Source: a virus (Duplodnaviria; Heunggongvirae; Uroviricota; Caudoviricetes). Taken from it: a DNA stretch of 37,564 nucleotides. The notes under the pieces are model-generated. The model saw only the letters and a list, made by a program, of their open reading frames with translations. It ran no database searches and was not told the DNA's origin. Shown here piece by piece: positions 3,199 through 37,564 of this stretch (positions within the stretch are counted from its first letter, which is position 1; each line of letters begins with the position of its first letter). The stretch lies in IMG/VR virus record IMGVR_UViG_2695420705_000025. One strand, 5' to 3'. Both the position numbers and the translations under genes were made by a program.

Positions 3199-3213
3199 GA
3201 AGGAGAAGAAATT

Positions 3214-3441
3214 ATGATGGCCCGAAATATAAAAATGGCAACGGATGCGCAGAACTGGTTACAGGCGCGCGGGAGTCATGTAAATGAATCATATCTCGGC
3301 GTGGCGCGTCCGATTCTTGAAATCACTTACCCACCGGTGGAACTGGTAAAAAACGCGGTCAGAATTATGGAGCATAAATCCGGAGTTGCCCGTTCTGTAT
3401 GGACGGCCCGTCTTAATGGTTGCCAGATTATCTGGAGATAA
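3214..3441 (+). CDS. kil: Kil host-killing protein (small early protein)
   Basis: 75-aa ORF immediately downstream of B, the position of Mu kil; GAAGGAGAAG Shine-Dalgarno upstream. Confidence 0.7.
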
Positions 3442-20160: not shown

Positions 20161-20708
20161 TGCTGGAAGAAACCGAAGCCGCACTGCTGGCGCGCGTTCG
20201 TGAGTTGTTTGGGGCAACCCTGCGGCAGGTGGAACCCCTTACCGGCACATGGACTAACGAGGATGTGCACCGTCTCTTTCTGGCCCCTCCATCGGTATTT
20301 CTGGCATGGATGGGCTGTGGTGAGGGGCGTACGCGTCGGGAAGTTGAAAGTCGCTGGGCATTTTTTGTCGTGGCGGAGTTGCTGAACGGGGAACCGGTAA
20401 ACCGGCCCGGTATTTATCAGATTGTGGAGCGACTGATTGCCGGTGTTAACGGTCAGACGTTTGGCCCGACCACCGGGATGAGACTGACGCAGGTCAGAAA
20501 TCTTTGTGACGACAACCGTATTAATGCCGGTGTGGTGCTTTACGGCGTTCTGTTCAGTGGCACTACCCCGCTGCCGTCCGTGGTGGACATGGATTCGCTG
20601 GATGATTACGAGCGTCACTGGCAGACCTGGAAATTCCCGGACGAAACCCCGGAATTTGCCGCACATATCAATGTGAATCAGGAAAAGGATCATGATGCTG
20701 AAAATTAA
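20160..20708 (+). CDS. Neck / tail completion protein (182 aa)
   Basis: ORF with start overlapping the upstream stop; position between head and sheath genes. The Mu letter name (K) is uncertain. Confidence 0.6.
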   Translation: MLEETEAALLARVRELFGATLRQVEPLTGTWTNEDVHRLFLAPPSVFLAWMGCGEGRTRREVESRWAFFVVAELLNGEPVNRPGIYQIVERLIAGVNGQTFGPTTGMRLTQVRNLCDDNRINAGVVLYGVLFSGTTPLPSVVDMDSLDDYERHWQTWKFPDETPEFAAHINVNQEKDHDAEN

Positions 20709-20898
20709 ACCCGCAGCGGGAAAAGCCATCCGTGACCCGCTCACGATGAAATTACTGGCTCCGGAGGGAGAAGAAAAGCCCCGTAACAGTTTCTGGATAC
20801 GTCGCCTTGCAGCCGGTGATGTGGTTGAAGTCGGGAGCACCGAAAACACGGCGGATGATACCGACGCTGCGCCGAAAAAACGGAGTAAATCGAAATGA
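20692..20898 (+). CDS. Small hypothetical late protein (68 aa)
   Basis: Short ORF overlapping both neighbours, immediately upstream of the sheath gene. Confidence 0.45.
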
Positions 20899-22382
20899 GC
20901 GATATTTCATTTAACGCGATCCCGTCAGATGTTCGCGTTCCTCTGACGTATATCGAATTTGATAACAGCAATGCCGTCAGCGGAACACCGGCTCCCCGCC
21001 AGCGCGTGCTGATGTTCGGGCAAAGCGGAAGTAAAGCCAGTGCCGCACCGAACGTGCCTGTCCGTATCCGTTCCGGCTCACAGGCCAGTGCGGCGTTTGG
21101 TCAGGGTTCCATGCTGGCACTGATGGCAGATGCATTCCTGAACGCTAACCGCGTGGCGGAGCTGTGGTGTATCCCGCAGGGAAACGGCACCGGTAATGCT
21201 GCTGTCGGTGAAATCTCACTGTCAGGAACGGCAGGCGAAAACGGCTCGCTTGTGACCTATATTGCCGGTCAGCGACTGGCGGTATCCGTCGCAGCAGGTA
21301 CAAAAGGGGCTGCGCTGGCTGACCTGCTGGTTGCCCGAATCAAAGGCCAGCCGGATTTACCGGTGACGGCAGAAGTTCGCGCAGACAGCGGAGATGATGA
21401 CACCTATGCAGATGTGGTTCTGAGTGCAAAATTTACGGGTGCATTATCTGCCGTGGATGTGCGCTGGAACTATTACGCGGGTGAAACCACCCCTTACGGG
21501 ATTATCACGGCATTCAAAGCCGCCTCCGGTAAAAATGGCAACCCGGATATCAGCGCAAGTATCGCGGGAATGGGCGATCTGCAATACAAATATATTGTGA
21601 TGCCCTATACCGATGAACCGAACCTGAATCTGTTACGCACTGAATTGCAGGAACGCTGGGGACCGGTCAATCAGGCTGATGGCTTTGCTGTGACAGTGCT
21701 GTCCGGCACGTATGGGGATATTTCCACGTTTGGTGTCAGTCGTAATGATCATCTGATCTCCTGTATGGGGATTGCCGGTGCACCGGAACCGTCATATCTG
21801 TACGCCGCCACACTGTGTGCCGTTGCCAGCCAGGCGCTTTCCATCGACCCGGCGCGTCCTCTCCAGACGCTGACGTTGCCCGGAAGAATGCCGCCTGCGG
21901 TGGGGGATCGTTTCACCTGGTCAGAACGTAATGCGCTGCTGTTTGACGGCATCTCCACGTTTAACGTGAATGATGGTGGTGAAATGCAGATTGAACGCAT
22001 GATCACGATGTACCGCACAAACAAGTACGGTGACAGTGATCCGTCTTATCTGAACGTGAATACCATCGCCACGCTGAGTTATCTGCGTTATTCACTGCGA
22101 ACCCGCATCACGCAGAAATTCCCGAACTACAAGCTGGCAAGTGATGGCACCCGCTTTGCCACCGGTCAGGCCGTGGTGACGCCATCCGTGATCAAAACGG
22201 AGCTGCTGGCACTGTTTGAAGAATGGGAAAACGCCGGACTGGTCGAGGATTTCGACACGTTCAAAGAGGAGCTGTATGTGGCACGTAACAAGGACGACAA
22301 AGACCGTCTTGATGTGCTTTGCGGCCCGAATCTGATTAACCAGTTCCGCATTTTCGCGGCACAAGTTCAGTTCATTCTGTAA
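20895..22382 (+). CDS. L: Contractile tail sheath protein
   Basis: 495 aa, [26 protein letters not shown]...; recognised as Mu L. Confidence 0.88.
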
Positions 22383-22391
22383 GGAGCATTT

Positions 22392-22748
22392 ATGGCTGGA
22401 AATCAGCGTCAGGGGGTGGCGTTCATCCGTGTCAATGGCATGGAGCTTGAAACGATGGAAGGTGCCTCCTTCACGCCTTCCGGTATCACCCGTGAAGAAG
22501 TGACCGGCTCGCGGGTTTATGGCTGGAAAGGTAAACCACGTGCCGCAAAGCTGGAATGCAAAATTCCGGGCGGTGGTGATATCGGTCTGGATGAAATCAT
22601 CGGCTGGGAAAACATCACGGCAGAGTTTCAGGCAGACACCGGTGAAACCTGGATGATGGCGAATGCCTGGCAGGCAGATGAACCGAAAAACGACGGCGGC
22701 GAAATTTCGCTGGTACTGATGGCAAAACAAAGCAAACGCATTGCATAA
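22392..22748 (+). CDS. M: Tail tube protein
   Basis: 118 aa immediately after the sheath gene with an AAGGAG SD; canonical sheath-tube order. Confidence 0.8.
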   Translation: MAGNQRQGVAFIRVNGMELETMEGASFTPSGITREEVTGSRVYGWKGKPRAAKLECKIPGGGDIGLDEIIGWENITAEFQADTGETWMMANAWQADEPKNDGGEISLVLMAKQSKRIA

Positions 22749-22757
22749 GGGGAAACA

Positions 22758-23192
22758 ATGGACGAAATGAATTTAGGTCCTGAAGCACAGGAACTGCATG
22801 ACAGCATTGTGGCAGAAATTCAGTCCGGCGTGCTGAAACTGAAAGACGGCCTGCCGTTCGGCACCGGTGACGAGACTGAAATGCAGTATGACGTGACGCT
22901 GCGTGAACTGACCGCAGGCGATCTGATTGATGCCCAGGCGGCTGCTGAAAAGCTGGTAATGAGCAAGGAAGGCCCGGTGCTGGTCAGTTCCCCGTCCCGG
23001 ATGGGACTGGAAATGCTGCGCCGACAGATTGCCAGCGTGGGTTGCATCAAAGGCCCGTTATCGCTGGCGCTGATGCGCAAGCTGTCTGTTGATGACTTCC
23101 AGCGTCTGTCGCTGGCTACAGAAATGTACGACATGGCTGTGGCGGCATCGCTGACACAAGAACGGGGGCGAGTGGCTGCGGTGCCGGAATGA
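22758..23192 (+). CDS. Tail assembly chaperone-like protein (gp41 position)
   Basis: 144 aa between the tube and tape measure genes, the usual chaperone position in myoviruses. Confidence 0.6.
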   Translation: MDEMNLGPEAQELHDSIVAEIQSGVLKLKDGLPFGTGDETEMQYDVTLRELTAGDLIDAQAAAEKLVMSKEGPVLVSSPSRMGLEMLRRQIASVGCIKGPLSLALMRKLSVDDFQRLSLATEMYDMAVAASLTQERGRVAAVPE

Positions 23193-23336
23193 TATTGAGA
23201 AAGCGGCGACAGCGATTGGCGTTATTCTGAAAAGTGGCCCGGAATGGGCCTTATCCCTCCCGCTGTCCCGCTTTTTCCGGCACTGCCAGCAGGCTAAAAC
23301 CCTCTCTCAATATCACCGTTAAATCAGGAAATCTCT

Positions 23337-25412
23337 ATGACCGGGAAACGCTTAAAGGCGTCTGTCATTATTGATCTTAATGGCAATCTTTCCCGGCGTT
23401 CCCGCCAGTATTCGAACCAGATAAACGCCCTGTCCCGTAGCGGACAAAGTTCCCTTCGTGCCCTGCGTATGGAGGTTGTGCGCGTTTCTGGTGCCATTGA
23501 CAGAATGGGTTCACTGTCAACCCGTACATTCCGAATGCTGTCAGCCGGGGCGCTGGGTATCGCTGGTGTGGGTTACACCGCCAATAAACTGTTTATTGGT
23601 GCAGCCGCCCAGCGTGAGCAGCAAATTATCGCCATGAACTCGCTGTATCACGGCGATAAGGTCAGAGCGCAGGCCATGATGGCCTGGGCAAAGCAGAACG
23701 CGAAGGACACCACGTGGGGGCTGAGTGGTGTTCTGGATGAGATCCGTTCGTCGAAAGGCTTCGGCATGACGGATGAACAGACGAAACAGTTCATCACCAT
23801 GTTGCAGGATCAGGGGGCCATGCACGGCTGGGATTTACCCACTGCACAGGGTGCCTCACTGCAACTGAAACAGATGTTTGCCCGCCAGCAAATCACGGCG
23901 GCGGATGCCAACCTGCTGACCGGTTACGGTATTAACGTTTACCAGACGCTGGCGGATGCACTGGGTAAAGAAGACGTTAAGGATATCCGCAAACAAGGTG
24001 AAAAAGGCAAGCTGGGTCTGAAATCCATTCTGACGGTATTCAGAACGCTGTCAGAACAGTCAAAAGGTGCACAGGCCAGTGCGATGAACTCCTGGGACGG
24101 GATGTTCGCCCAGATGGAAGCTAACCTGCTTGAATTTCGCATAAAGGTGGCAAACAGCGGCCCCTTTGAAGAAATCAAGAACGAGATGCGCCGGGTGCTT
24201 AACTGGCACGACATGGCGGATAAATCCGGGGAACTTGACGCACTGGCAGAAAACATTGGTCAGAAATTTCTGACCACGTTCAGAACGGTAAAAATCGCGG
24301 CGCAGGAATTATGGCGCTGGCTGAAACCGGGTAAAGATGCGCTGGCATGGGTTGACCAGAATATTGTCAGCCTGAAAAAACTGGCTGCTGTTCTGGTGTC
24401 TGTCTGGCTTGCCAATAAAGCCCTGAGAGCAGGCTGGGCCGTGGCAAAACCCTCATGGCAGGTTGCCAGTTATCCGTTTAAAACCGGGCGTCGTATGTGG
24501 CGCTGGATGCGAAACCGCAAACGTGGGCAGGCAGGTCTGCCGGTCCCGGATGCCATGACGTCTGAGACGCTGTTGCAGGGTATCGGCATTCAGCGTGTGT
24601 TTGTCATCAACTGGCCCCGTGGATTTGGTGGCTACGGGAGTGGCGGCGGTCGTCGCGGACGGAGCGGCGGAAGAATGGCCCCGCTGTTACCCCGCCAGCC
24701 GTTATTGCTGTCCGGGCCACAGCCGCTGGCATTACCTGCACCACGCCCTGTACTGGCATTACCCCCACCCGGCGTACCGGTAACAGCACGGCCTGCACCA
24801 TTACCTTTACCCGGTAAATCCGGTCTTCTGAGCAGGCTTGCAGGCAGTGCTGCCGGGCAACTGGTTACGGGAACGGTCGGAAAGCTGGCTGATGCCGGGC
24901 GTGCTGTTGGCGGGTGGTTTTCCGGTATCGGAAACAAACTTGCAGGCAGTGCGATCGGTCGGGTTGTGACAAAAGGTGCCGGGGCGCTGGGCTGGATGGG
25001 GAAAGGTGCCGGTCGTGTGTTGTCACGTCTGGGTGGCCCAGTAATGGGGGCACTCCAGCTTGCCCCCGTCCTGATGGATGAGCAGGCGTCAACCCATGAA
25101 AAAGCAGGCGCAATTGGCAGTACAGCCGGTGCATGGCTCGGCGGTGCCGTTGGCAGCCTTGCCGGACCGCTGGGTACGGTTGCCGGTGCCACGCTGGGCA
25201 GTGTCGCCGGGGAGTATCTGGGCGGTTTTGTAACCGACCTGTATCAGAAATGGACGGCCCCGGATAAGGAACCGCAGGAACAAAAAGTGAATGCGGAAGC
25301 CTCGCTGCGCGTCGAACTTGCCGAGGGGTTACGTCTGACCAGTTCCCGCGTCACCGAGGACGGTATGGGGCTGAATATTTACGCGGGCGATAACTACATT
25401 ACAGGCTGGTAA
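23337..25412 (+). CDS. Tail tape measure protein
   Basis: 691 aa, the largest tail ORF, with a Gly/Arg/Pro-rich low-complexity core and a Gly-rich C-terminal segment ([13 protein letters not shown]..., [20 protein letters not shown]). Confidence 0.8.
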
Positions 25413-25416
25413 AACC

Positions 25417-26904
25417 ATGTTTGAAGATGCTTTAAATGCCGTTAATGCTGTCCGGGATAAAATCAGCGGTGGTAAGAAAACAACCGGCAAAGGCACGTTT
25501 CGTAACGTGCCGTTTCTCGTCATCGAGGAGCAAAAACAGGCTGGCGGACGTCGCCTGGTTAAACGCGAGTACCCGTTACGTGATACCGGCGGCGTCAATG
25601 ACCTGGGGAAAAAGCTTCGCTCCCGTACATTCAGCGCCTGCATTCTGAACAGCAACGCAGAAACAGCCAGAGATGAAGCGGGTGCGCTGATGGATGCTCT
25701 TGATGCTCCGGGTAGCGGTGAGCTGGTACATCCTGATTTCGGCACTGTGGACGTCATGGTGGATTCATGGGAATGCCGCACTAAAGCGGATGAACTGAAT
25801 TATTACGCGTTCACCGTTACCGTTTATCCGTCGTTGCAGGATACTGCCCCGGACTCAGAGACAGACACCAGTGCAGCCGTACCGGCACAGGCCGTTGCTG
25901 TAACCGGTTCTCTGGGAGATACGCTGTCCTCTGTCTGGCAGACCGTAAAAGATGGCACTGCGGCGGCAACCGCCGTGATGGAAGCTGTAACCGGTGTCAT
26001 CGATGATATCAGTGATGCGGTGGACAATCTGGGGGTTACGCAGACTGTCAGCGGTCTGATGGGATCGCTTTCTGCGATGAAAGGCTCTGTGACCAGCCTG
26101 ATTAACCAGCCTGCCATGCTGGCCTCCTCGCTGATGGGGGCGCTGTCCGGCGTTTCATCGTTATGCGATACCCGGACAGCATTTTCCACATGGAACCGTC
26201 TGGCGCAGCGATTCGAACGTCGCCATGCCGCCACCGCAGGCAGACAGGGGACAATCACAACCTCGTACAACAGTCCGGTTGCAGAAAAAAATATTGCCAC
26301 ACTGAACTACGTCATGCTGGCAGCAGCACAGACATACCGGGCGGAGGCAGCAAGCCAGGCACTGACTGCGGCACTGGATTTCAGTCGCCGGATGGATAAT
26401 GCCGCCCGTGCACCTGTACTGGATGCCCCGTCCACCACAACCGGCACAGCCAGCGGGGCCAGCAGCACATCCGCTACCGTCACACAGGGACAGTTACAGT
26501 TAACTGCCATAACCCCGGACGGCGGCTTTTCACAGGTATCCTTTTCAGACAGTGGTACAGCCACGCCCCCGGTATTTGAAAGTGTGTCCGATATCGGAAA
26601 AACAGCCGCCATGCTGGGGGCAGCGCTGGATACCGTCATTCTGACGGCATCTGAGCAGGGCTTTTCGACAGACAGCGTTCAGCTTACGCAACTGCGTCTG
26701 CTGGTTGTTGCCGACCTGGAAAAACGCGGGCTGCAACTGGCAGGCAGTGAAACGCACCGCCTGCCGGAGACGATGCCTGCAATGGTGGCTCTGTACCGTT
26801 ACACAGGAAACAGCCGGAACTGGCAACGGCTGGCCCGCAGGAACGGTATCAGCAACCCGTTGTTTGTTCCCGGTGGTGTCAGTATTGAGGTGATTAATGA
26901 GTAA
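25417..26904 (+). CDS. N: N protein, DNA circularization protein
   Basis: 495 aa in the Mu N position downstream of the tape measure. Confidence 0.75.
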
Positions 26905-28036
26905 TACCGTCACGCTGCGAACGGATGGCAGGCTTTTTACCGGCTGGACGTCAGTCTCTGTCACCCGCTCCATTGAATCCGTAGCCGGATATTTTGAGCT
27001 GGGGGTGAATGTGCCACCGGGTACAGATTTATCCGGGCTGGCACCGGGGAAGGCGTTCACGCTGGAAATCGACGGGCAGATTGTCTGCACCGGTTATATC
27101 GATTCGCGGCGACGCCAGATGACCGCTGACAGCATGAAAATCACTATCGCCGGACGTGACAAAACGGCTGACCTGATTGACTGTGCTGCCGTTTACAGTG
27201 GCGGACAGTGGAAAAACCGCACACTGGAGCAGATTGCGCGTGACCTGTGCGCTCCTTATGGCGTTACCGTTCGCTGGGAGCTTTCCGATAAGGAAAGTTC
27301 GGCAGCTTTTCCCGGCTTCACGCTGGACCATTCAGAAACCGTTTATGAGGCGCTGGTGCGTGCCTCCCGCGCACGCGGTGTACTGATGACCAGCAATGCC
27401 GCAGGAGAGCTGGTATTCAGCCGGGCTGCCAGCACAGCCACTGATGAGCTGGTTCTCGGAGAAAATCTGCTGACACTGGATTTTGAGGAAGACTTCCGCG
27501 ACCGGTTCAGCGAATACACCGTCAAGGGGTATGCCCGCGCAAACGGTGCTGAGGGTGATGATATTGATGCGAAAAGTATCGTCTCCCGGAAAGGGACCGC
27601 CACTGACAGTGATGTAACCCGTTACAGACCGATGATCATCATTGCTGACAGCAAAATTACGGCGAAGGATGCACAGGCCCGCGCCCTGCGTGAGCAACGC
27701 CGCAGACTGGCAAAATCCATCACCTTTGAGGCTGAAATTGACGGATGGACTCGCAAGGACGGGCAACTCTGGATGCCGAACCTGCTGGTCACTATTGATG
27801 CCTCGAAATATGCCATCAAAACCACGGAATTACTGGTCAGCAAAGTCACCCTGATACTGAATGACCAGGACGGGCTGAAAACCCGCGTCAGCCTTGCACC
27901 ACGCGAAGGCTTTCTGGTGCCGGTTGAAAGCGACCGTAAAAACAGGAAAGGCGGCGACAGTAACGGCGGTATTGATGCGCTGGTTGAAGATTATTATCGC
28001 AGACACCCGGAGAAAACGCCGCCGTGGAAAGAGTAA
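26897..28036 (+). CDS. P: Baseplate hub / tail protein P
   Basis: 379 aa; position and size match Mu P. Confidence 0.75.
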
Positions 28037-28617
28037 ATGATTTCGCCCTGAACCGCCTGCTGACGCCGCTGATGCGTCGTGTGCGCCTGATGCTTGCGCG
28101 CGCTGTTGTTAACGTGATTAACGACGGGCGAAAGGTTCAGAACCTGCAGGTCGGCCTGCTGGATGATGAGGAATCTGATGAAGTGGAGCGCCTGCAAAAT
28201 TACGGGCATTTCAGCGTTCCCCTGCCGGGAGCAGAGGCGCTGATTGCCTGTGTAGGCGCACAACGTGATCAGGGGATTGCCGTTGTGGTGGAAGACCGCC
28301 GCTACCGCCCGACAAATCTTGAACCGGGTGATGCAGGCATTTACCACCACGAGGGGCATCGTATCAGGCTGACAAAGGACGGACGCTGCATCATTACCTG
28401 TAAAACGGTTGAGGTTTACGCTGATGAAAGTATGACCGTTGACACACCCAGAACCACGTTTACCGGCGACGTTGAGATCCAGAAAGGTCTGGGCGTTAAA
28501 GGTAAAAGCCAGTTCGACAGCAATATTACTGCCCCGGATGCCATCATCAATGGCAAATCGACGGATAAGCATATCCACCGTGGCGACAGCGGCGGAACCA
28601 CGGGGCCAATGCAATGA
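28024..28617 (+). CDS. Baseplate central spike protein (gp45-like)
   Basis: 197 aa from a GTG start at 28024 overlapping the P 3' end; position and size match Mu gp45. Confidence 0.7.
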   Translation: MERVNDFALNRLLTPLMRRVRLMLARAVVNVINDGRKVQNLQVGLLDDEESDEVERLQNYGHFSVPLPGAEALIACVGAQRDQGIAVVVEDRRYRPTNLEPGDAGIYHHEGHRIRLTKDGRCIITCKTVEVYADESMTVDTPRTTFTGDVEIQKGLGVKGKSQFDSNITAPDAIINGKSTDKHIHRGDSGGTTGPMQ

Positions 28618-29051
28618 CCGATTTAGCCATTATCTGGACGAACGGACGCGGCGATATTGCACAGGATGGCATTGATATGCTGACCGACGACAGCCTGACA
28701 ACCGATGTGACAATCTCCCTGTTTACAGACCGGCGCGCGCTGGATTCTGACACGCTGCCGGATGGTTCAGATGATCGCCGTGGATGGTGGGGTGACAGTT
28801 ACCGCGACCGCCCCATCGGTTCGCGGTTGTGGCTGTTATCACGTGAAAAAGCCACACCGGATACGCTGGAACGCGCCAGAGGGTATGCCGAAGAGGCGCT
28901 GGAATGGCTGAAAACAGCGGGCCGGGTAAGTGCGATTAACGTCAGAGCGGAACAGTTACATCAGGGCTGGTTATACCTCTACATTGCACTGACATTACCG
29001 GATGGTTCCGTTATTCCTTATGAGTTTAAAGCAGCATTTAACGGGGTTTAA
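28614..29051 (+). CDS. Baseplate wedge protein (gp46-like)
   Basis: 145 aa, ATGA overlap with upstream gene; position in the baseplate module. Confidence 0.7.
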   Translation: MTDLAIIWTNGRGDIAQDGIDMLTDDSLTTDVTISLFTDRRALDSDTLPDGSDDRRGWWGDSYRDRPIGSRLWLLSREKATPDTLERARGYAEEALEWLKTAGRVSAINVRAEQLHQGWLYLYIALTLPDGSVIPYEFKAAFNGV

Positions 29052-30134
29052 ATGGCTTATTCACCACCGACATTATCATCGCTGATTGCCCGTACAGAAC
29101 AGAATATTGAACAGCGCCTGCCGGGTAGCTGGCCTCAGGCCCGTGAAAAAACGCTGAGTGCCATTGCTTATGCTCAGGCGGGCCTTGCTGCCGGTTGTCA
29201 CGAGCATATTTCATGGGTTGGACGGCAGATTATCCCGTCGACAGCAGATGAAGATGAGTTGCTGGAGCACTGCCGGTTCTGGGGCGTGCGCCGCAAACAG
29301 GCGACAGCCGCCAGCGGCCCGCTGACTGTCACCACATCGGCAGCGACCACCATTCCTGCCGGTACACGCTGGCAGCGTGCTGATGGTGTGGTTTACAGCC
29401 TGGCTGATGCCATTGTGATTGACCGTGCAGGAACGACGGAAATTACCGTTACCGCACTGGCTGCCGGTGAAGCAGGAAATACCGGTGAGAATACCCTTTT
29501 AACGTTGATCACCCCGGTTGCCTGTGTTGTTTCCGATGCCATCACTGTAAAAGGGTTTTCCGGTGGGGCTGATATTGAGAGTGCAGCGGAGCTGCTGTCA
29601 CGGCTGGAATATCGTGTCCAGTATCCTCCGTTCGGCGGTAATCAGTTTGATTATGTTCGCTGGGCGCGTGAAGTCAGCGGCGTTACCCGTGCCTGGTGTT
29701 TTCCGACATGGAAAGGCGGTGGCACAGTCGGGGTGACGTTTGTTATGGATAACCGGAGCAATATTTTTCCACAACCGGCAGACGTGGAACGCGTGGCGGA
29801 TTATATCGCCGGTCATACTGACCCGATCACCGGTCTGATTGTCGGACAGCCTGACGGTGTAAATGTCACTGTATTTGCGCCAAAGGCAAAGCCGGTAAAT
29901 CCACGGATTTATATATCACCGAAGACAGCCGAACTGAAACAGGCTATTACCCACGCCATTAATACCATGTTTTTTAATGAGGTGACGCCGGGCGGCGCAC
30001 TTGCCCCCTCCCGTATTATCCGTGCGGTGGCAGGTGTTACCGGTCTGGATGATTTTGAAGTGCGTTTCCCGACAGAGATCCAGCGTTCGGAGAATACGGA
30101 ACTGTTAACACCGGGGACAATTGAATGGCTGTAA
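29052..30134 (+). CDS. Baseplate J-like protein (gp47-like)
   Basis: 360 aa; position and size match the baseplate J family member of Mu. Confidence 0.75.
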   Translation: MAYSPPTLSSLIARTEQNIEQRLPGSWPQAREKTLSAIAYAQAGLAAGCHEHISWVGRQIIPSTADEDELLEHCRFWGVRRKQATAASGPLTVTTSAATTIPAGTRWQRADGVVYSLADAIVIDRAGTTEITVTALAAGEAGNTGENTLLTLITPVACVVSDAITVKGFSGGADIESAAELLSRLEYRVQYPPFGGNQFDYVRWAREVSGVTRAWCFPTWKGGGTVGVTFVMDNRSNIFPQPADVERVADYIAGHTDPITGLIVGQPDGVNVTVFAPKAKPVNPRIYISPKTAELKQAITHAINTMFFNEVTPGGALAPSRIIRAVAGVTGLDDFEVRFPTEIQRSENTELLTPGTIEWL

Positions 30135-30667
30135 CACCCTATCAGACGGCCTTTCTGCAATTACTGCCGTCAGGGCTTGCCTGGAATAAAAGCCCCGACA
30201 GCAAATTATCTGCGCTGGCGCAGGCCATCAGCGACGTGATTGCCACTGCGGCGGATGATGCGCGGCAAATGCTGCGGGAGCGTTTCCCGTCCACATCCCG
30301 CTGGTATCTGGGGGGGTGGGAATCATTTCTGGGGTTGCCGGACTGTACCAGCGAAAACGGCACCCTGTCCGAACGCCAGCGGGCTGCCGCGAATAAAATG
30401 CGTATGACCGGCAATCTGAGTCGGCGCTTTTATGAATGGCTGGCTGCGCAGTACGGTTTTACCGTCAGGCTGACGGATTCCACAGAAGGCCAGTGGGTTA
30501 CGCAGGTCAATATTTACGGTATTAAAAATTATCGCAACGCAACGGTGCTGGATAATGTTCTGACGCCGTTACGTGTTTATGAATCGGGTGCGCTGGAATG
30601 TTTACTGGAGAAATATAAACCCGCGCATCAGATTTATAAATTTGTTTACCATGACGGAGATAACTAA
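30125..30667 (+). CDS. Tail protein gp48-like (baseplate / fibre attachment)
   Basis: 180 aa immediately upstream of the tail fibre gene. Confidence 0.7.
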   Translation: MAVTPYQTAFLQLLPSGLAWNKSPDSKLSALAQAISDVIATAADDARQMLRERFPSTSRWYLGGWESFLGLPDCTSENGTLSERQRAAANKMRMTGNLSRRFYEWLAAQYGFTVRLTDSTEGQWVTQVNIYGIKNYRNATVLDNVLTPLRVYESGALECLLEKYKPAHQIYKFVYHDGDN

Positions 30668-32022
30668 TGTTTTATATTGATAACGACAGCGGCGTAACCG
30701 TCATGCCGCCCGTATCCGCCCAGCGTAGTGCTATCGTTCGCTGGTTTTCAGAAGGTGACGGGAATAATGTTATCACATGGCCCGGCATGGACTGGTTTAA
30801 TATTGTGCAGGCGGAGTTATTAAACACGCTGGAAGAAGCCGGTATTCAACCGGATAAAACAAAATTAAACCAGCTTGCACTATCCATTAAAGCCATTATG
30901 AGCAATAACGCACTGCTGATAAAAAATAACCTCAGCGAAATTAAAACTGCCGGGGCATCAGCACAGCGTACAGCACGTGAAAATCTGGATATTTATGATG
31001 CCAGCCTGAACAAAAAAGGACTCGTTCAGCTAACCAGTGCCACTGACAGCCCCAGTGAAACGCTGGCAGCCACCGCAAAAGCGGTGAAAATTGCGATGGA
31101 TAATGCCAGTGCCCGTCTGGCAAAAGACCGGAACGGAGCAGATATTCCCAATAAGCCGCTGTTTATCCAAAACCTCGGTTTACAGGAAACGGTAAACAAG
31201 GCTGGTAACGCTGTTCAGCGTTCTGGCGATACAATGACCGGAAAACTGAATCTACCACAGACATCTGCATTCGGCGTTGATACCGATAATGCACTGGGTG
31301 GTAATTCCATTACTCTCGGAGATAACGACACTGGTATTAAACAGGGCGGAGACGGTGTCCTTTTATTCTATTCAAATGGACAACTGGCATTTGGGCTTCA
31401 ACCCGCATCTGCTGATTTTTATAAGCGGGTTGCATACATTCCTCAGGGAATAATTCCTGATGGAAGTGGCGCATTTGCAGACCAGTTGAATAATGCCACC
31501 GCGCCTTTTGTTCAGACGCAGTTTGCCTGGAATCCCACTCCTGGTGGTCATTACGTGCCGATAGTTAAGGGCTTGTCCATTCGCAATGGACAGGGCTATC
31601 CCGGCGCGGTCAGCTTTGGTTATTTGCTGACAGAACAGTATGGATTTCCGGTTCCATGTATTCATATGCGTGGCGATGGCGGTAATGATGCTTTATGGCA
31701 GTTTAACCCGAACGATAAATCTTTTATTTCACCGGGTGCTCTTGTTGCGGGTGGCATCATTTATAACACCGATGGAAATATATTTGGCGGGTGTTGGGGT
31801 TCAAATTTAGCTGATTATCTCAATAGCACATATGTAAGAGACATTCGACTTGGTAGCGCAGAATCAATATCAGCATGGCGAGGCCCTGGTTACTGGGATA
31901 CTTCTGGATATGTTCTGACCGCAGCCGGAAACAGCAACACCGATGAATTTATTGATACATTAACCAGAAGGCCTATTCAGAAGTTGATTGGTGGGACATA
32001 TTATAACGTTGTGAGTATTTGA
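30667..32022 (+). CDS. S: Tail fibre protein S (constant Sc part fused to the variable part currently in expressing orientation)
   Basis: 451 aa. The constant N-terminal part runs to the left gix repeat (about 31167); the variable part lies inside the invertible segment. Confidence 0.88.
31167..31203. repeat. gixL, left inverted repeat / Gin recombination site of the G segment
   Basis: CCAAAACCTCGGTTTACAGGAAACGGTAAAC is the near-perfect reverse complement of 34340-34375 (two or three mismatches); lies inside S at the constant/variable junction (encodes LGLQETVN). Confidence 0.85.
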
Positions 32023-32023
32023 C

Positions 32024-32551
32024 ATGATGCATTTAAAAAACATTAAAGCAGGGAACCCCAAAACACCTGAACAATACCAGTTAACCAAAAAAGCTGGAGT
32101 GGTCTGGCTTTATACTGAAGATGGTAAAAACTGGTACGAAGAACAAAAAAACTTTCAACCAGATACTATAAAAATTGCATACGATAAAAATAATGTGATT
32201 GTTACCGTAAGCAAAGATGTTTCAACTATTAACCCGGAAGGTTTAAGTGTTGTTGAAGTATCCGATATTACGGCAAATCGTCGCGCAGACAATAACGGAA
32301 ACTGGATGTTTCTGGATGGTAAAGTAGTAAAGCGGGAATATACAAAACAGGAGCTGCAACAGCAGGCAGAGTTACAAAAAGCCGCTTTGCTTTCCGAAGC
32401 GGAGTCTGTGATTCAACCGCTGGAACGTGCTGTCAGGCTGAATATGGCAACTAATGAGGAACGCGCACGACTGGAGTCATGGGAACGCTACAGTGTTCTG
32501 GTCAGCCGTGTGGATACGGCAAATCCTGAATGGCCACAAAAGCCTGAATAA
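32024..32551 (+). CDS. U: Tail fibre assembly protein U
   Basis: 175 aa directly after S; paralogous to the minus-strand 177-aa ORF (both start [11 protein letters not shown]...). Confidence 0.88.
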
Positions 32552-32556
32552 AAATT

Positions 32557-32576
32557 AAGGCCCGATAGCGGGCCTT
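32557..32576. terminator. Bidirectional hairpin between convergent U and U'
   Basis: AAGGCCCG-ATAG-CGGGCCTT stem-loop in the 28-bp gap between the convergent stop codons. Confidence 0.55.
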
Positions 32577-32579
32577 GTC

Positions 32580-33113
32580 TCATTCTGGTTGTTCCGGGAA
32601 TGTTACAGGAAGAACAGAGGTATCTGTGGCATCAACCTGCTGCATGTATAACATCCAGTTAATGAGTCTTTGCCTGTCTGAATCGCTGATAATTCCCAGC
32701 GCAAGCTGTGTTTGCCAGCACTGCGTTTCCTCTCTGGCCTGTCGCAGCAAAATCTGTTTCTGAATTTCAGCCAGTTGACGTAGTTCTTCATCAGTCCGGG
32801 GGCGTTTCATGACCTTGCCATCCTGAAACACCCAGTCACCGAGAATATCGGCCCGGCGATTCGCTGTCGTGTCGGGTAATTCGACAACGCTCATTCCTTC
32901 CGGGTTAATAGACGACACATCTTTTTCAATATAGCGAATGATACCTCTGTCATCGTAAGCGATTTTTAGTGTGTCTGCCTGAAAGGCTTTTTGTGCCTCA
33001 TACCAGTTCTTACCATCTTCAGCGTAAAGCCAGATAACTCCGTGTTTCTTTGTTAACTCATACTGTTCCAGTGTTTTAGCGTTACCCGCTTTTATGTTCT
33101 TTAAGTGCATCAT
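32580..33113 (-). CDS. U': Tail fibre assembly protein U' (alternative, currently non-expressed orientation)
   Basis: 177 aa on the minus strand, paralogous to U; follows S' on the minus strand. Confidence 0.85.
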   Translation of the reverse strand: MMHLKNIKAGNAKTLEQYELTKKHGVIWLYAEDGKNWYEAQKAFQADTLKIAYDDRGIIRYIEKDVSSINPEGMSVVELPDTTANRRADILGDWVFQDGKVMKRPRTDEELRQLAEIQKQILLRQAREETQCWQTQLALGIISDSDRQRLINWMLYMQQVDATDTSVLPVTFPEQPE

Positions 33114-33114
33114 A

Positions 33115-34362
33115 TTAAACGCTCGCTACATTATACCAGGTGCCATTTATATACTTTTGAACGGGTCTGTAATAAACGCCCGCTATATTATCGGCAGAGT
33201 TGGACCCTGTATCCTGAACATTAATACCAGACAATACATGACCTGACGGGCACTGGAAATTCCATGTTTGCCAGTTGTTCACACCATGATATTGCTGTGA
33301 ACCAAGACGAACATCTTTCACATAGCGGGAATCAAAATTCCCCCAGTTGCTGGGTTGTATCTGACCGTTAACAGCAAATATCACCGAGTTATCTGTATTT
33401 CGCTGACTATAGAAATGCCAGCCTGAATCATCACCAAGCTCTGCAACAGTTGGTCTTGACGAATTTCCCCACAAGCTAAATGATGCATTACGGGCAGCGG
33501 TATTTGCACTTGAAAGTGTGAAGAACTTACTTTCCCCAGCCTGAATACCCTTTAATGATCTTGCTGAACCATTTATAAAGCGGAATACATGCACACCATT
33601 AGCATAAGCATCCAGCACCCCATCACCATTTTGTTTAAACCCGGTATCGTTATCTCCTAAAACTATTGAATTTCCACCCAGGGCATTAGCCGTTCCAATC
33701 CCCAGATTTCCGCTAAAAATGGCATTAATACCGAGTATTGAGTGAGAACAATAAAACCCTCGCCCATTGTTAAAATCCAGAATGGCTTGTGCGTTCGTGC
33801 TTTCTGTCGCGGGATTAGTTGCTCCCCACTTATATGTTGTTTGACCGACAGTATAATCCTGAGTTGGAACAATAACCGTTAGCCCTTCTTCAGCAGAAAC
33901 CCGCACAGGAAAAGCCCTGCCTTCAACGTAAAAAACGCTGCATACATCATCTTCTTTAAGGCTTGTTACAATGGAATGGATTGCGCGCTCATTAGTCTGA
34001 TACGTCGAAAAATAACCTGCCGCATATGAACCACGATCAGTCCAGCCACCAGGCATTACCATTCCATTGAATTCGCAGTTATTCATTGCGTAATCACTAC
34101 TGGCACATGTGGTCGTTATAATCACTCTGGAAGCCAGCTCGCCAGTGCCGCCTGTGGAACGCCGGAAAATAACTGGATACCACTTTCCACCAATTGCATT
34201 AGACGGCGCATTAAATGCGTACTGCCGCATTCCTTTTTTCTTATCCACCTCGCCTTTGCTGTAAACATTAATGTTACTCAGGAAGCGATCCTTATCAGGA
34301 ATATCCGCGCCGTTCTGGTTTTTCTGTAATGCGCCAGAAGCCTGATTTACCGTTTCCTGCAA
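33115..34362 (-). CDS. S': Sv', alternative variable tail fibre domain; startless ORF that opens at gixR
   Basis: Minus-strand ORF whose first codons (LQETVN) are encoded by the gix repeat; the in-frame codon upstream is TAA and the apparent start is TTG. So it has no start of its own and is expressed only after inversion fuses it to Sc. Shares the motif [22 protein letters not shown] with S. Confidence 0.85.
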   Translation of the reverse strand: MQETVNQASGALQKNQNGADIPDKDRFLSNINVYSKGEVDKKKGMRQYAFNAPSNAIGGKWYPVIFRRSTGGTGELASRVIITTTCASSDYAMNNCEFNGMVMPGGWTDRGSYAAGYFSTYQTNERAIHSIVTSLKEDDVCSVFYVEGRAFPVRVSAEEGLTVIVPTQDYTVGQTTYKWGATNPATESTNAQAILDFNNGRGFYCSHSILGINAIFSGNLGIGTANALGGNSIVLGDNDTGFKQNGDGVLDAYANGVHVFRFINGSARSLKGIQAGESKFFTLSSANTAARNASFSLWGNSSRPTVAELGDDSGWHFYSQRNTDNSVIFAVNGQIQPSNWGNFDSRYVKDVRLGSQQYHGVNNWQTWNFQCPSGHVLSGINVQDTGSNSADNIAGVYYRPVQKYINGTWYNVASV

Positions 34363-34375
34363 ACCGAGGTTTTAG
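34340..34375. repeat. gixR, right inverted repeat / Gin recombination site of the G segment
   Basis: Reverse complement matches gixL; located 59 bp upstream of the gin start. Confidence 0.85.
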
Positions 34376-34433
34376 ATAATGGCTGTTTCCGGCCTGCATG
34401 GCATGATTTGCGCTTTTAAACGGGAGATCCAGA

Positions 34434-35027
34434 GTGCTGATTGGCTATGTAAGGGTATCAACAAATGACCAGAATACAGACCTGCAACGAAACGCTCTTG
34501 TTTGTGCAGGATGTGAACAAATATTTGAAGATAAATTAAGCGGAACAAGGACAGACAGACCTGGATTAAAACGCGCTTTAAAGCGCCTTCAAAAAGGTGA
34601 CACACTTGTTGTCTGGAAACTGGATCGCCTCGGGCGAAGCATGAAACATTTGATTTCTCTCGTAGGGGAATTACGAGAGCGAGGGATTAATTTTCGCAGT
34701 CTTACTGACAGTATTGATACGTCATCTCCAATGGGGCGTTTTTTCTTCCACGTTATGGGTGCCCTGGCTGAGATGGAACGAGAACTAATCATCGAGCGAA
34801 CGATGGCTGGACTTGCTGCCGCCAGAAATAAAGGCCGTATTGGTGGGCGACCACCTAAACTAACCAAAGCGGAATGGGAGCAGGCCGGGCGTTTATTAGC
34901 ACAAGGAATCCCCCGCAAGCAGGTTGCATTGATCTACGATGTGGCCCTGTCAACTCTGTATAAAAAACACCCCGCGAAACGAACGCATATAGAAAACGAC
35001 GATCGAATCAATCAAATCGATCGGTAA
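34434..35027 (+). CDS. gin: Gin serine recombinase (DNA invertase), copy 1
   Basis: 197 aa from a GTG start, MLIGYVRVSTNDQNTDLQRNALVCAGCEQIF... with catalytic serine in VRVST; recognised as Mu Gin. Confidence 0.92.
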   Translation: MLIGYVRVSTNDQNTDLQRNALVCAGCEQIFEDKLSGTRTDRPGLKRALKRLQKGDTLVVWKLDRLGRSMKHLISLVGELRERGINFRSLTDSIDTSSPMGRFFFHVMGALAEMERELIIERTMAGLAAARNKGRIGGRPPKLTKAEWEQAGRLLAQGIPRKQVALIYDVALSTLYKKHPAKRTHIENDDRINQIDR

Positions 35028-35035
35028 TACAGATC
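35001..35035. promoter_or_regulatory. Cluster of three GATC (Dam) sites, mom upstream regulatory region, copy 1
   Basis: GATC at 35001, 35019 and 35032, overlapping the gin 3' end and upstream of com. Mu mom is known to be controlled by Dam methylation and OxyR binding at three upstream GATC sites. Confidence 0.6.
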
Positions 35036-35109
35036 GATTATGTCTCAATAACCACACTCAACCCATGATGTTTTTTAAGATAGTGGCGAATTGATGCAAA
35101 GGAGGTGAG

Positions 35110-35280
35110 ATGAAATCAATTCGCTGTAAAAACTGCAACAAACTGTTATTTAAGGCGGATTCCTTTGATCACATTGAAATCAGGTGTCCGCGTTGCAAAC
35201 GTCACATCATAATGCTGAATGCCTGCGAGCATCCCATGGAGAAACATTGTGGGAAAAGAGAAAAAATCACGATCTCCTAA
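35110..35280 (+). CDS. com: Com-like translational activator, C-terminally altered copy created by the duplication junction (56 aa)
   Basis: Identical to com through codon 54 (zinc-finger cysteines intact), then reads IS-stop across the junction at 35271/35272 instead of HSDETVRY-stop. No mom gene follows this copy. Confidence 0.6.
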   Translation: MKSIRCKNCNKLLFKADSFDHIEIRCPRCKRHIIMLNACEHPMEKHCGKREKITIS

Positions 35281-35982
35281 AACTATTGAATTTCCACCCA
35301 GGGCATTAGCCGTTCCAATCCCCAGATTTCCGCTAAAAATGGCATTAATACCGAGTATTGAGTGAGAACAATAAAACCCTCGCCCATTGTTAAAATCCAG
35401 AATGGCTTGTGCGTTCGTGCTTTCTGTCGCGGGATTAGTTGCTCCCCACTTATATGTTGTTTGACCGACAGTATAATCCTGAGTTGGAACAATAACCGTT
35501 AGCCCTTCTTCAGCAGAAACCCGCACAGGAAAAGCCCTGCCTTCAACGTAAAAAACGCTGCATACATCATCTTCTTTAAGGCTTGTTACAATGGAATGGA
35601 TTGCGCGCTCATTAGTCTGATACGTCGAAAAATAACCTGCCGCATATGAACCACGATCAGTCCAGCCACCAGGCATTACCATTCCATTGAATTCGCAGTT
35701 ATTCATTGCGTAATCACTACTGGCACATGTGGTCGTTATAATCACTCTGGAAGCCAGCTCGCCAGTGCCGCCTGTGGAACGCCGGAAAATAACTGGATAC
35801 CACTTTCCACCAATTGCATTAGACGGCGCATTAAATGCGTACTGCCGCATTCCTTTTTTCTTATCCACCTCGCCTTTGCTGTAAACATTAATGTTACTCA
35901 GGAAGCGATCCTTATCAGGAATATCCGCGCCGTTCTGGTTTTTCTGTAATGCGCCAGAAGCCTGATTTACCGTTTCCTGCAA
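35272..35982 (-). pseudogene. Truncated second copy of the Sv' 5' region (N-terminal 237 codons)
   Basis: Exact copy of 33652-34362; the reading frame continues into junction-derived sequence (track ORF 35146-35982). Confidence 0.8.
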
Positions 35983-35995
35983 ACCGAGGTTTTAG
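35960..35995. repeat. Third gix site (duplicate of gixR), in direct orientation to gixR and inverted relative to gixL
   Basis: Identical to 34340-34375 at an offset of 1620 bp. Confidence 0.85.
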
Positions 35996-36053
35996 ATAAT
36001 GGCTGTTTCCGGCCTGCATGGCATGATTTGCGCTTTTAAACGGGAGATCCAGA

Positions 36054-36647
36054 GTGCTGATTGGCTATGTAAGGGTATCAACAAATGACCAGAATACAGA
36101 CCTGCAACGAAACGCTCTTGTTTGTGCAGGATGTGAACAAATATTTGAAGATAAATTAAGCGGAACAAGGACAGACAGACCTGGATTAAAACGCGCTTTA
36201 AAGCGCCTTCAAAAAGGTGACACACTTGTTGTCTGGAAACTGGATCGCCTCGGGCGAAGCATGAAACATTTGATTTCTCTCGTAGGGGAATTACGAGAGC
36301 GAGGGATTAATTTTCGCAGTCTTACTGACAGTATTGATACGTCATCTCCAATGGGGCGTTTTTTCTTCCACGTTATGGGTGCCCTGGCTGAGATGGAACG
36401 AGAACTAATCATCGAGCGAACGATGGCTGGACTTGCTGCCGCCAGAAATAAAGGCCGTATTGGTGGGCGACCACCTAAACTAACCAAAGCGGAATGGGAG
36501 CAGGCCGGGCGTTTATTAGCACAAGGAATCCCCCGCAAGCAGGTTGCATTGATCTACGATGTGGCCCTGTCAACTCTGTATAAAAAACACCCCGCGAAAC
36601 GAACGCATATAGAAAACGACGATCGAATCAATCAAATCGATCGGTAA
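36054..36647 (+). CDS. gin: Gin serine recombinase (DNA invertase), copy 2
   Basis: Identical to the 34434-35027 copy. Confidence 0.92.
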   Translation: MLIGYVRVSTNDQNTDLQRNALVCAGCEQIFEDKLSGTRTDRPGLKRALKRLQKGDTLVVWKLDRLGRSMKHLISLVGELRERGINFRSLTDSIDTSSPMGRFFFHVMGALAEMERELIIERTMAGLAAARNKGRIGGRPPKLTKAEWEQAGRLLAQGIPRKQVALIYDVALSTLYKKHPAKRTHIENDDRINQIDR

Positions 36648-36655
36648 TACAGATC
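36621..36655. promoter_or_regulatory. Cluster of three GATC (Dam) sites, mom upstream regulatory region, copy 2 (the one actually upstream of com-mom)
   Basis: Same sequence as 35001-35035 at an offset of 1620 bp. Confidence 0.6.
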
Positions 36656-36729
36656 GATTATGTCTCAATAACCACACTCAACCCATGATGTTTTTTAAGA
36701 TAGTGGCGAATTGATGCAAAGGAGGTGAG

Positions 36730-36918
36730 ATGAAATCAATTCGCTGTAAAAACTGCAACAAACTGTTATTTAAGGCGGATTCCTTTGATCACATTGAAAT
36801 CAGGTGTCCGCGTTGCAAACGTCACATCATAATGCTGAATGCCTGCGAGCATCCCATGGAGAAACATTGTGGGAAAAGAGAAAAAATCACGCATTCTGAC
36901 GAAACCGTGCGTTATTGA
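36730..36918 (+). CDS. com: Com, zinc-finger translational activator of mom
   Basis: 62 aa, [62 protein letters not shown], with CxxC...CxxC zinc finger; overlaps the mom start. Confidence 0.9.
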
Positions 36919-37564
36919 GTATGAAGGCCAGATTGTTGGCTATGGTTCAAAGGAGCTGCGCGTTGAAACCATATCTTGCTGGCTGGCCCGCACAATTATT
37001 CAGACAAAGCACTATTCCCGCCGTTTTGTGAATAACTCTTACCTCCACCTGGGAGTATTCAGCGGACGCGATCTGGTTGGCGTTCTCCAGTGGGGATATG
37101 CCCTTAACCCCAACTCAGGTCGTCGTGTCGTGCTTGAAACGGATAACCGGGGCTATATGGAGTTGAACCGCATGTGGCTACACGACGACATGCCCCGCAA
37201 CTCTGAATCACGGGCCATCAGTTATGCACTGAAAACCATAAGGTTACTGTATCCGTCAGTGGAGTGGGTTCAGTCTTTTGCAGACGAACGCTGCGGACGT
37301 GCTGGCGTTGTGTATCAGGCGTCAAATTTTGATTTTATTGGCAGCCATGAAAGCACGTTCTACGAGCTGGATGGTGAGTGGTATCACGAGATAACGATGA
37401 ACGCGATTAAACGCGGTGGACAACGAGGCGTGTATTTACGGGCTAATAAAGAGCGTGCCGTGGTGCACAAATTTAATCAGTATCGCTACATCAGGTTCCT
37501 GAACAAGCGAGCAAGGAAGCGACTAAATACCAAGCTATTCAAGGTTCAGCCATACCCTAAGTGA
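36839..37564 (+). CDS. mom: Mom DNA modification enzyme (adenine carbamoylmethylation, anti-restriction)
   Basis: 241-aa ORF starting inside com and ending at the last base of the window; recognised as Mu Mom. The exact start codon may be downstream of 36839. Confidence 0.88.

Follow-up and report, generated by a model that had tools for sequence, protein, structure and literature searches.

The fibre-switch locus and its sites

The window, by which we mean the whole 37,564-nucleotide stretch of viral DNA analysed here, ends on its right in a Mu-type locus that contains three gix sites and two gin genes, and the stop codon of mom is the final codon of the window. The features are given below from left to right, where L002 denotes the E. 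coli Mu-like prophage JHRP01000021.1 (GCA_001265535.1).

30667..32022, + strand: S, tail fibre in the G(+) orientation, 451 aa (ORF; Pfam Phage_fiber_2, E=1e-16)
31163..31188, + strand: gixL core, 26 bp, 0 mismatches, central dinucleotide TC at 31175-31176
32024..32551, + strand: U, tail fibre assembly chaperone for S (Pfam Caudo_TAP, E=7.5e-37)
32580..33113, - strand: U', tail fibre assembly chaperone for S' (Pfam Caudo_TAP, E=2.9e-28)
33115..34362, - strand: full Sv' cassette, 415-aa ORF (ORF; in-silico inversion)
33652..35271: duplication unit, copy 1 (1,620 bp, repeated exactly by the next 1,620 bp)
34354..34379, - strand: gixR core, 2 mismatches to gixL, inverted relative to gixL
34434..35027, + strand: gin copy 1, 197 aa (ORF; homology to Mu Gin)
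35110..35280, + strand: com', a truncated com (ORF; Pfam Zn_ribbon_Com, E=1.8e-9)
35146..35982, - strand: Sv'-delta, a truncated second Sv' (ORF)
35271..35272: novel joint, blunt, at which com codon 54 is followed directly by internal Sv' sequence
35272..36891: duplication unit, copy 2 (exact repeat of copy 1)
35974..35999, - strand: gix3, third gix core, 2 mismatches, identical to gixR
36054..36647, + strand: gin copy 2, identical to copy 1
36730..36918, + strand: intact com, 62 aa (ORF; Pfam Zn_ribbon_Com)
36839..37564, + strand: mom, 241 aa (ORF; PF25680 Mom on the identical L002 gene)

The order Sc-gixL-Sv-U-U'-Sv'-gixR-gin-com-mom is that of the G segment of phage Mu, whose Gin/gix system is one of the Fis- and enhancer-dependent serine invertases (Gin, Hin, Cin and Pin); the 26-bp gix cores with their TC dinucleotide are also common to the two. 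Inside the segment two cassettes oppose one another, Sv-U on the + strand and U'-Sv' on the - strand, each with its own Caudo_TAP chaperone gene. As the window is oriented, the constant part Sc (30667-31175) is joined to the variable part Sv (31176-32019), and the same S protein is encoded, among the matches listed, in the natural prophages L001-L003. The variable fibre parts differ from those of Mu, S having 451 aa here but 504 aa in the record for Mu (PDB 5yvq chain A). Residues 320-414 of Sv' match the C-terminal tip of the Mu fibre S (PDB 5yvq, E=2.9e-18). Inversion between gixL and gixR, carried out in silico, keeps the reading frame, with products of 451 and 586 aa, and full Sv' is predicted to be expressed only after that inversion, as the 586-aa Sc-Sv' fusion. 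In a homologous E. coli prophage, CP066032.1, inversion has been confirmed by long reads (PMC9881135).

The Gin protein is that of Mu over residues 1-193 except for A183T, and its structure match is PDB 3uj3 (E=3.5e-125). It is a small serine recombinase with an N-terminal catalytic and a C-terminal HTH part, the Resolvase and HTH_7 domains being found on the identical L002 protein; its N-terminus, MLIGYVRVSTNDQ, has Ser9 present. There are no changes in the dimer-interface helix, where hyperactivating mutations lie, and the encoded Gin is, by its sequence, the wild-type form. The first 123 nt of gin are identical to Mu, and a loose Fis consensus has two matches, at gin nt 34-48 and 71-85. From the position of the Mu enhancer, we assume that a Fis-bound enhancer lies in the 5' part of each gin.

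A scan for the 26-bp core and the identity of the two gin ORFs bear out the initial annotation in its count of three gix sites and two gin copies. It had also found the right elements in placing gix sites at 34340-34375 and 35960-35995 and the start of the first at 31167, though these intervals are off by 4 nt and miss the outer ATAA of each core. Its third site is, as it had said, a direct repeat of gixR: gixR and gix3 have the same orientation, opposite to that of gixL, at a spacing of exactly 1,620 bp. All three cores share an identical asymmetric central dinucleotide (TC/GA). Matches to the core by chance occurred in 0/100 shuffles, and no further gix-like site lies in the window within 9 mismatches of the 26-bp core.

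A perfect tandem repeat

Where does the third gix come from? An offset-match script finds an exact head-to-tail duplication of 1,620 bp, 33652-35271 being 100% identical to 35272-36891; the duplication was delimited by this offset matching, as Tandem Repeats Finder, with a longest period of 500, reports none. The unit extends from the interior of Sv' to com codon 54, and so comprises the 5' 711 nt of the Sv' ORF, gixR, gin, the gin-com spacer and com codons 1-54. The spacer is, as mapped by the Mu annotation, the mom promoter region in Mu. A further difference from Mu is that the gixR-gin-com' block and a 5' piece of Sv' occur here as two tandem copies. The third gix, the second gin, the second stretch of mom promoter and com', and the Sv' fragment are all by-products of one duplication event.

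Both copies are intact and internally coherent, with no Ns. At offset 1,620 the sequence matches itself over exactly 1,620 bp and no further, so that microhomology at the joint is 0 bp; flanking repeats or short homology that would explain its formation were not found. The joint alters two reading frames. The gene com' consists of 54 com codons, 2 foreign codons (IS) and a stop made by the junction, while Sv'-delta has 237 genuine codons (35982-35272) followed by 41 codons antisense to com' (35271-35149). The portion missing from Sv'-delta includes the residues that match the Mu fibre tip of known structure, 5yvq.

Two sources for the repeat were considered. One, rejected, is that its breakpoints are secondary gix sites, so that the duplication would be a Gin product; only three gix cores are found within 9/26 mismatches. 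The other is the copying of FASTA lines, suggested by 1620 = 27 x 60; the repeat starts off a 60-nt boundary in the coordinates of both the window and JHRP01000021.1, and this unproven relation may be coincidence.

In L002 the repeat is missing. That prophage matches window segments 20667-35271 and 35272-37564 at 100.000% identity each, and because the two matching stretches overlap on L002 by exactly one unit, it has one copy: gixR and gin each occur once, and there is no Sv' fragment. Apart from the extra unit, then, 20667-37564 matches JHRP01000021.1 without a difference, and the identity covers that part only; the proteins encoded in the left 20 kb are widespread, and other prophages found through them match the window at 94-98.6% identity. 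Prophage L001, phages Mu, D108 and SfMu, and the complete genomes CP035836 and CP077479 have the order S-U-U'-S'-gin-com-mom with one gin each, and in none of these relatives, nor in L002, are there two gin genes or a third gix. In L003 the gin side is joined to the tape-measure gene; an aberrant Gin product was considered here and rejected, the join being a scaffold join through a single N.

The junction itself was sought in several ways. A 30-nt junction sequence is absent from viral, genome and metagenome contigs, the genome collection (genome_contigs) containing one genome per species, and a 200-nt junction sequence is spanned by no phage record and by no complete E. coli genome. By exact-protein look-up, neither the com' junction product nor Sv'-delta in versions of 278, 240 and 234 aa is on record; draft E. 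coli assemblies are covered through these look-ups only, which depend on the start codon guessed. When the 278-aa junction ORF was compared with 5.8 billion clusters, no protein covered the junction tail, and normal S' proteins alone were found, the best matches having 99% identity and coverage of at most 86%.

Recombination expected at three gix sites

If the DNA existed in this form, which products would be expected? The enhancer rules suggest that inversion by Gin and Fis would be about as easy at gixL x gix3 as at gixL x gixR, because each right-hand gix is natively placed relative to a gin-borne enhancer. Four inversion isomers would then be reachable, of which two would put Sv'-delta behind Sc. 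The initial annotation had foreseen that inversion between gixL and gix3 would fuse Sc to a truncated Sv' with no U' gene behind it, and the in-silico product agrees: 4,811 bp are flipped, and the resulting 449-aa Sc-Sv'-delta fibre is without the C-terminal tip and has no U' downstream. Making a tipless fibre, with no chaperone gene following, these two isomers would probably be dead ends for infectivity.

Deletion between the directly oriented sites is another matter. When the gixR-gix3 interval is removed in silico, exactly 1,620 bp are lost and what remains is the single-copy sequence found in L002. Any deletion between directly oriented gix pairs would be expected to remove just that length and bring back the wild type. 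It was claimed earlier that Gin would excise one repeat unit in this way. The interval and the restoration of the single copy are correct, but Gin is doubtful as the main agent, since wild-type Gin favours inversion.

How strong is the case for Gin as the main resolver of the duplication, through gixR x gix3 deletion? The geometry is exact, and Gin-mediated deletions were reportedly described by Plasterk et al. in 1983 (Virology 127:24). Still, Kanaar (1990), Heichman (1991) and Moskowitz (1991) reportedly found that sites in direct repeat are misaligned within the invertasome at the asymmetric TC/GA core, with knots as the main outcome after two exchanges. The Gin encoded here is moreover of the wild-type form, and wild-type Fis/enhancer-dependent invertases carry out inversion only, between sites on the same molecule, promiscuity being limited to hyperactive mutants (PMC3798978). 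When several sites coexist, inversion at reverse-oriented sites is favoured over deletion at same-oriented sites (PMC11850598), and it is only the hyperactive Hin-H107Y that treats inversion and deletion alike, which wild-type Hin does not (PMC4817059). We consider Gin-mediated excision an unlikely main route back to one copy. With deletion disfavoured by wild-type Gin, the duplication would be expected to collapse mainly through RecA recombination between the identical 1.62-kb copies.

RecA-dependent recombination between the copies, the obvious route of reversion, was absent from the initial annotation. Tandem duplications are lost through RecA recombination (PMC10954465). The repeat resembles the unstable tandem duplications of bacteria in having identical copies arranged head to tail, which RecA can remove without trace (PMC10954465), and differs from them in that short homology, often present at their joints, is missing at the joint in the window.

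Origin of the repeat

What event, in the cell or on the computer, produced the second unit? The base locus, with Sc, gixL, the opposed Sv-U and U'-Sv' cassettes, gixR, gin with its presumed internal Fis enhancer, and com-mom, would serve an E. coli Mu-like prophage as its host-range switch. Such a switch belongs to textbook Mu biology, and in the identical public prophage the arrangement is the normal one. Given that prophage with its single copy, a junction found in no collection, and no two-gin relative among those examined, we favour, with moderate confidence, an ordinary Mu-type G-segment switch to which a one-off duplication of 1,620 bp has been added, most likely as an artefact of assembly or sequence handling and less likely as a recent, unstable duplication. 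The initial annotation took the duplication as biological. That assumption no longer holds the first place: since a 100% identical public prophage lacks the duplication and the junction is absent from all collections searched, an artefact is now the leading possibility, and the duplication most likely lies outside the natural phage genome. One might object that an internal, perfect tandem copy is not classic misassembly, and typical assembler artefacts at invertible segments break at repeats, here gix, rather than at arbitrary intragenic points. It also counts against an artefact, or a one-off event, that the S-protein loci compared were those among the matches listed, so that others could carry the duplication.

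The less likely alternative to an artefact is a very recent, unselected and unstable duplication, that is, a genuine tandem duplication which arose spontaneously by RecA-independent illegitimate recombination, in a strain or re-sequenced clone outside the collections, and is segregating in the population. We regard this as possible, though on balance doubtful. The coherence of the sequence, in which both copies are intact and free of Ns, speaks for it. Mu packages by the headful, about 39 kb for a 36.7-kb genome, and the extra 1.62 kb would probably still fit. The junction could be present in an unseen assembly, given a genome collection with one genome per species and S matches confined to those listed. 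The joint lacks microhomology, which argues against a genuine duplication, although real duplications formed independently of RecA can have joints with 0 bp of shared sequence. Against it, too, are the parent sequence, identical at 100% and with one copy, and the absence of the junction from every collection searched. In addition, a phage with the duplication would be selected against, because half of its inversion isomers give tipless fibres, and RecA would quickly remove the repeat. Were the duplication genuine, the locus would be truly heterogeneous, as the initial annotation had predicted for a population, with four inversion isomers and single-copy revertants.

One would think of a further possibility, since natural multi-site invertase systems are known: an evolved multiple-inversion system in which the third site widens the repertoire of fibre tips. 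Min of plasmid p15B, in which a serine invertase has several crossover sites within genes for tail fibres, and the shufflon of R64 (Rci) are such systems. The window has in common with them more than two crossover sites, one type of invertase, isomers reached by successive inversions, and a preference for inversion, and its three sites have identical central dinucleotides. In Min and the shufflon, however, every site has a distinct and complete 3' cassette next to it, in a conserved arrangement, whereas in the window gix3 adjoins no new cassette but only a truncated Sv' that runs into antisense com, with no chaperone gene and no tip, and leads to isomers with defective fibres. The copies are 100% identical, with zero divergence, and the arrangement is in no relative examined. 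An evolved multiple-inversion system is thus extremely improbable and effectively refuted; the three-site arrangement is most likely neither an evolved design nor a new kind of switch.

As matters stand, the favoured reading, a canonical switch with a one-off duplication, counsels caution, in that one unsupported repeat in one sequence was enough to yield a plausible story of a new recombination network. If the duplication is genuine, the locus would have gained a third crossover site and a doubled gin and enhancer. Such DNA might then be a natural snapshot of a two-site switch becoming a multi-site one by duplication of its gix-invertase module, a suggestion that we make tentatively and think unlikely. 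The state would be self-healing, because of the inversion bias of Gin and because all deletion routes restore the wild type. A real duplication of this kind would be a small natural experiment on site choice and directionality, in which a wild-type invertase that depends on Fis is offered three sites and two enhancers, and would give a hint of the origin of multi-site systems such as Min.

The switch region and its 1,620-bp repeat

The window is a Mu-like prophage. Over its first 25 kb it is 97.8% identical to phage Mu, in an alignment that begins at Mu coordinate 1099. Its first codon is the ner ATG (1-228; Mu coordinate 1099) and its last the mom stop codon (36839-37564), so that the stretch was cut out where genes begin and end; it contains neither the c repressor gene nor either Mu end (attL, attR). 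With ORFs and Pfam domains read against the Mu annotation as a map, the Mu gene order is kept in the switch region up to the first gin. What follows is unexpected: a truncated com, a fragment of the alternative variable fibre part Sv' and a second gin, with com and mom last.

Features of the switch region (window coordinates, strand, feature)
30667-32022, plus, S, tail fibre gene (Phage_fiber_2)
31163-31188, plus, gixL, 26-bp core
32024-32551, plus, U, fibre assembly chaperone (Caudo_TAP)
32580-33113, minus, U', alternative chaperone (Caudo_TAP)
33115-34362, minus, Sv'
34354-34379, minus, gixR, 26-bp core
34434-35027, plus, gin copy 1
35974-35999, minus, third gix (gix3), 26-bp core
36054-36647, plus, gin copy 2
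36730-36918, plus, com
36839-37564, plus, mom

The scan for gix cores and the gin ORFs thus confirm the three gix sites and two gin copies described in the initial annotation, which had picked the right gix elements but placed them 4 nt off. All three cores have TC/GA as the central dinucleotide. By chance no gix core is expected in the window, and besides these three the window contains no gix-like site within 9 mismatches of the core.

A single duplication event accounts for all of the extra parts. Shifted by 1,620 nt, the window is a perfect match to itself over a run of 1,620 nt (33652-35271 = 35272-36891), and since the run equals the period, the joint at 35271/35272, between …AAAAAATCACG and ATCTCCTAAAAC…, is blunt and lacks microhomology. 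The unit begins within Sv', carries gixR and gin together with the spacer between gin and com (where the Mu annotation places the mom promoter region), and ends after com codon 54. Two new reading frames arise at the joint: com', of 56 aa, which consists of 54 com codons followed by the residues IS, and a 278-aa minus-strand ORF in which 237 genuine Sv' codons run on into 41 that are antisense to com'. In the scan of the window the duplication breakpoints show no resemblance to gix, and Gin is rejected as the maker of the duplication. At 27 x 60 nt the unit (both copies, 33652-36891) would fill whole lines of a 60-column FASTA file, but it starts off a 60-nt boundary in both window coordinates (33651 mod 60 = 51) and those of JHRP01000021.1; the length is possibly a coincidence.

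The joint in other sequences

Is the duplication found elsewhere? It is without support in any other sequence searched. Looking up the S protein yielded at least three natural prophage loci. One, on E. coli contig JHRP01000021.1, is 100.000% identical to window 20667-35271 and 100.000% identical to 35272-37564, and the two matching stretches overlap on the contig by exactly one unit; this locus is therefore the same prophage in single-copy form, without further differences over 16.9 kb. The second, L001 (locus 1-21356 of CP024297.1, a 167,764-bp record), is 99.9% identical to the window and single-copy too. The third, L003 (CYCB01000036.1), is 99.9% identical over the part covered; its contig stops just past gixR, where a scaffold gap joins it elsewhere, so that L003 by itself gives no gene order. 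The order S-U-U'-S'-gin-com-mom with one gin is found in Mu, D108 and SfMu and in two complete E. coli genomes that match the window at 99.9% identity from gixR through gin.

Searches for the joint itself agree. A 30-nt joint sequence was not found in viral, genome or metagenome contig collections, and a 200-nt joint was spanned by no phage record and by none of 5,426 complete E. coli genomes. Exact look-ups of the proteins that only the joint would encode (278, 240 and 234 aa, and com' of 56 aa), the one route by which draft E. coli assemblies were covered, returned no record. Homology search with the 278-aa ORF found normal S' proteins only, with the match ending at the joint (99% identity over 86% of the query).

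Two of these loci have peculiarities of their own. In L001, the same prophage, the sheath, DNA-circulation and baseplate-hub genes are split and IS66-family elements follow mom directly; this is apparently a decaying copy, on a replicon that may be plasmid-sized. In the draft contig of L003 a single N links gixR-gin-com-mom to the middle of the tape-measure gene (…AAAACCTCGGTTTnAAATCACGG…), so that 3190-3240 joins window 34361 to window 23890. A large inversion or other recombination product was considered for this join and rejected in favor of a scaffold join at a contig end within gix; at window 23890 nothing gix-like is present.

Three gix sites, Gin and the origin of the repeat

What products would three sites allow? 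The Fis-bound enhancer of Mu lies in the 5' part of gin, and nt 1-123 of the present gin are identical to Mu. The encoded Gin equals Mu Gin over residues 1-193 except for A183T, has four additional C-terminal residues, and matches solved Gin structures with E=3.5e-125. Because the region of Fis-independent hyperactive mutations is unchanged, wild-type behavior is expected of it. Wild-type enhancer-dependent invertases are chemically inactive outside the invertasome and carry out only inversion, between sites on the same molecule, a restriction that hyperactive mutants lose (PMC3798978); Hin-H107Y, unlike wild-type Hin, inverts and deletes at equal rates (PMC4817059). Where several sites are present together, inversion systems favor inversion over deletion (PMC11850598).

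Recombination was simulated by cutting at the gix central dinucleotides, which gives segment a, the invertible G segment between gixL and gixR (3,191 bp), and segment b, from gixR to gix3 (1,620 bp). Inversion between oppositely oriented sites reaches four states.

Simulated states and the product read from the S start codon (Sc, constant fibre part; Sv'-delta, truncated second Sv'; prime, inverted)
a b, as in the window: S, 451 aa
a' b: Sc-Sv', 586 aa
b' a': Sc-Sv'-delta, 449 aa
b' a: Sc-Sv'-delta, 449 aa

The simulation bears out the earlier proposal that inversion between gixL and gix3 yields a truncated fibre with no U' behind it; the inverted stretch is 4,811 bp. The 449-aa product consists of 408 genuine residues and a foreign tail of 41. 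Missing from it are the 178 C-terminal residues of S', among them the match to the solved tip of Mu fibre S at its C terminus (5yvq, E=2.9e-18), and in neither isomer does a chaperone gene lie downstream of it. The two new isomers should therefore give defective fibres, and particles made from them are predicted not to adsorb. With the enhancer placed from Mu background, gix3 is in its native position relative to that of gin copy 2, from which we infer for the gixL x gix3 inversion an efficiency close to that of the normal one. Whatever the state, b is the one segment flanked by directly oriented gix sites, so that any site-specific deletion removes exactly b and restores the wild-type locus with its single copy, always leaving the G segment in place. 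The geometry of the 1,620-bp excision ascribed to Gin in the initial annotation therefore holds; Gin as its agent is disfavored for a wild-type invertase, and in vitro the pair gixR and gix3 is predicted to yield knots without recombination and few 1,620-bp circles. RecA recombination is a documented route to loss of tandem copies (PMC10954465). Between two identical 1.62-kb copies it would be the dominant way back to one copy, making loss RecA-dependent and largely Gin-independent, and its product is the same as that of Gin excision.

How, then, did the repeat arise? The locus is probably a canonical Mu G switch with a one-off, artefactual duplication introduced by assembly or sequence handling. 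The switch itself is textbook, the additional sites are by-products of an unsupported repeat, and the premise that the duplication is biological is likewise unsupported. The artefact is less than proven, because a perfect internal tandem copy with arbitrary breakpoints is atypical of misassembly at an invertible segment. A genuine duplication, very recent and unstable, is a less likely though appreciable possibility; as such it would be of modest interest, a naturally occurring substrate with three sites for a wild-type invertase and perhaps the start of a path to multi-site systems. One might think instead of an evolved multiple-inversion system like Min, with its several sites, but the third site brings no new cassette, the two copies are undiverged and no relative examined shares the arrangement, so that this very improbable reading is effectively excluded.

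Differences from Mu around gin

Apart from the repeat, the variable fibre cassettes (31176-34366) differ from those of Mu, and 59% of 30000-37564 is alignable to Mu by megablast. S has 451 aa in the window versus 504 in Mu, yet over its C-terminal ~95 residues Sv' keeps a match to the solved Mu S tip (5yvq). U and U' are inverted paralogues, ~75% identical (inverted repeats I1 and I2). The gin coding sequence is almost invariant: within 34340-34700 the window differs from Mu at 14 places, of which 11 fall at the gin start or upstream, nine in the 54-nt gixR-gin spacer (34380-34433) and two inside the gixR core. The gin leader and promoter region seems to change more rapidly than gin itself, in which the enhancer is embedded.

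On the plus strand, antisense to Sv' and just upstream of gixR and gix3, is a terminator-like hairpin followed by a T-run (34214-34231 and 35834-35851). It could keep late transcripts that read out of the G segment from entering gin, and in the duplicated state would also stand between the first mom promoter and com' on one side and gin copy 2 on the other.
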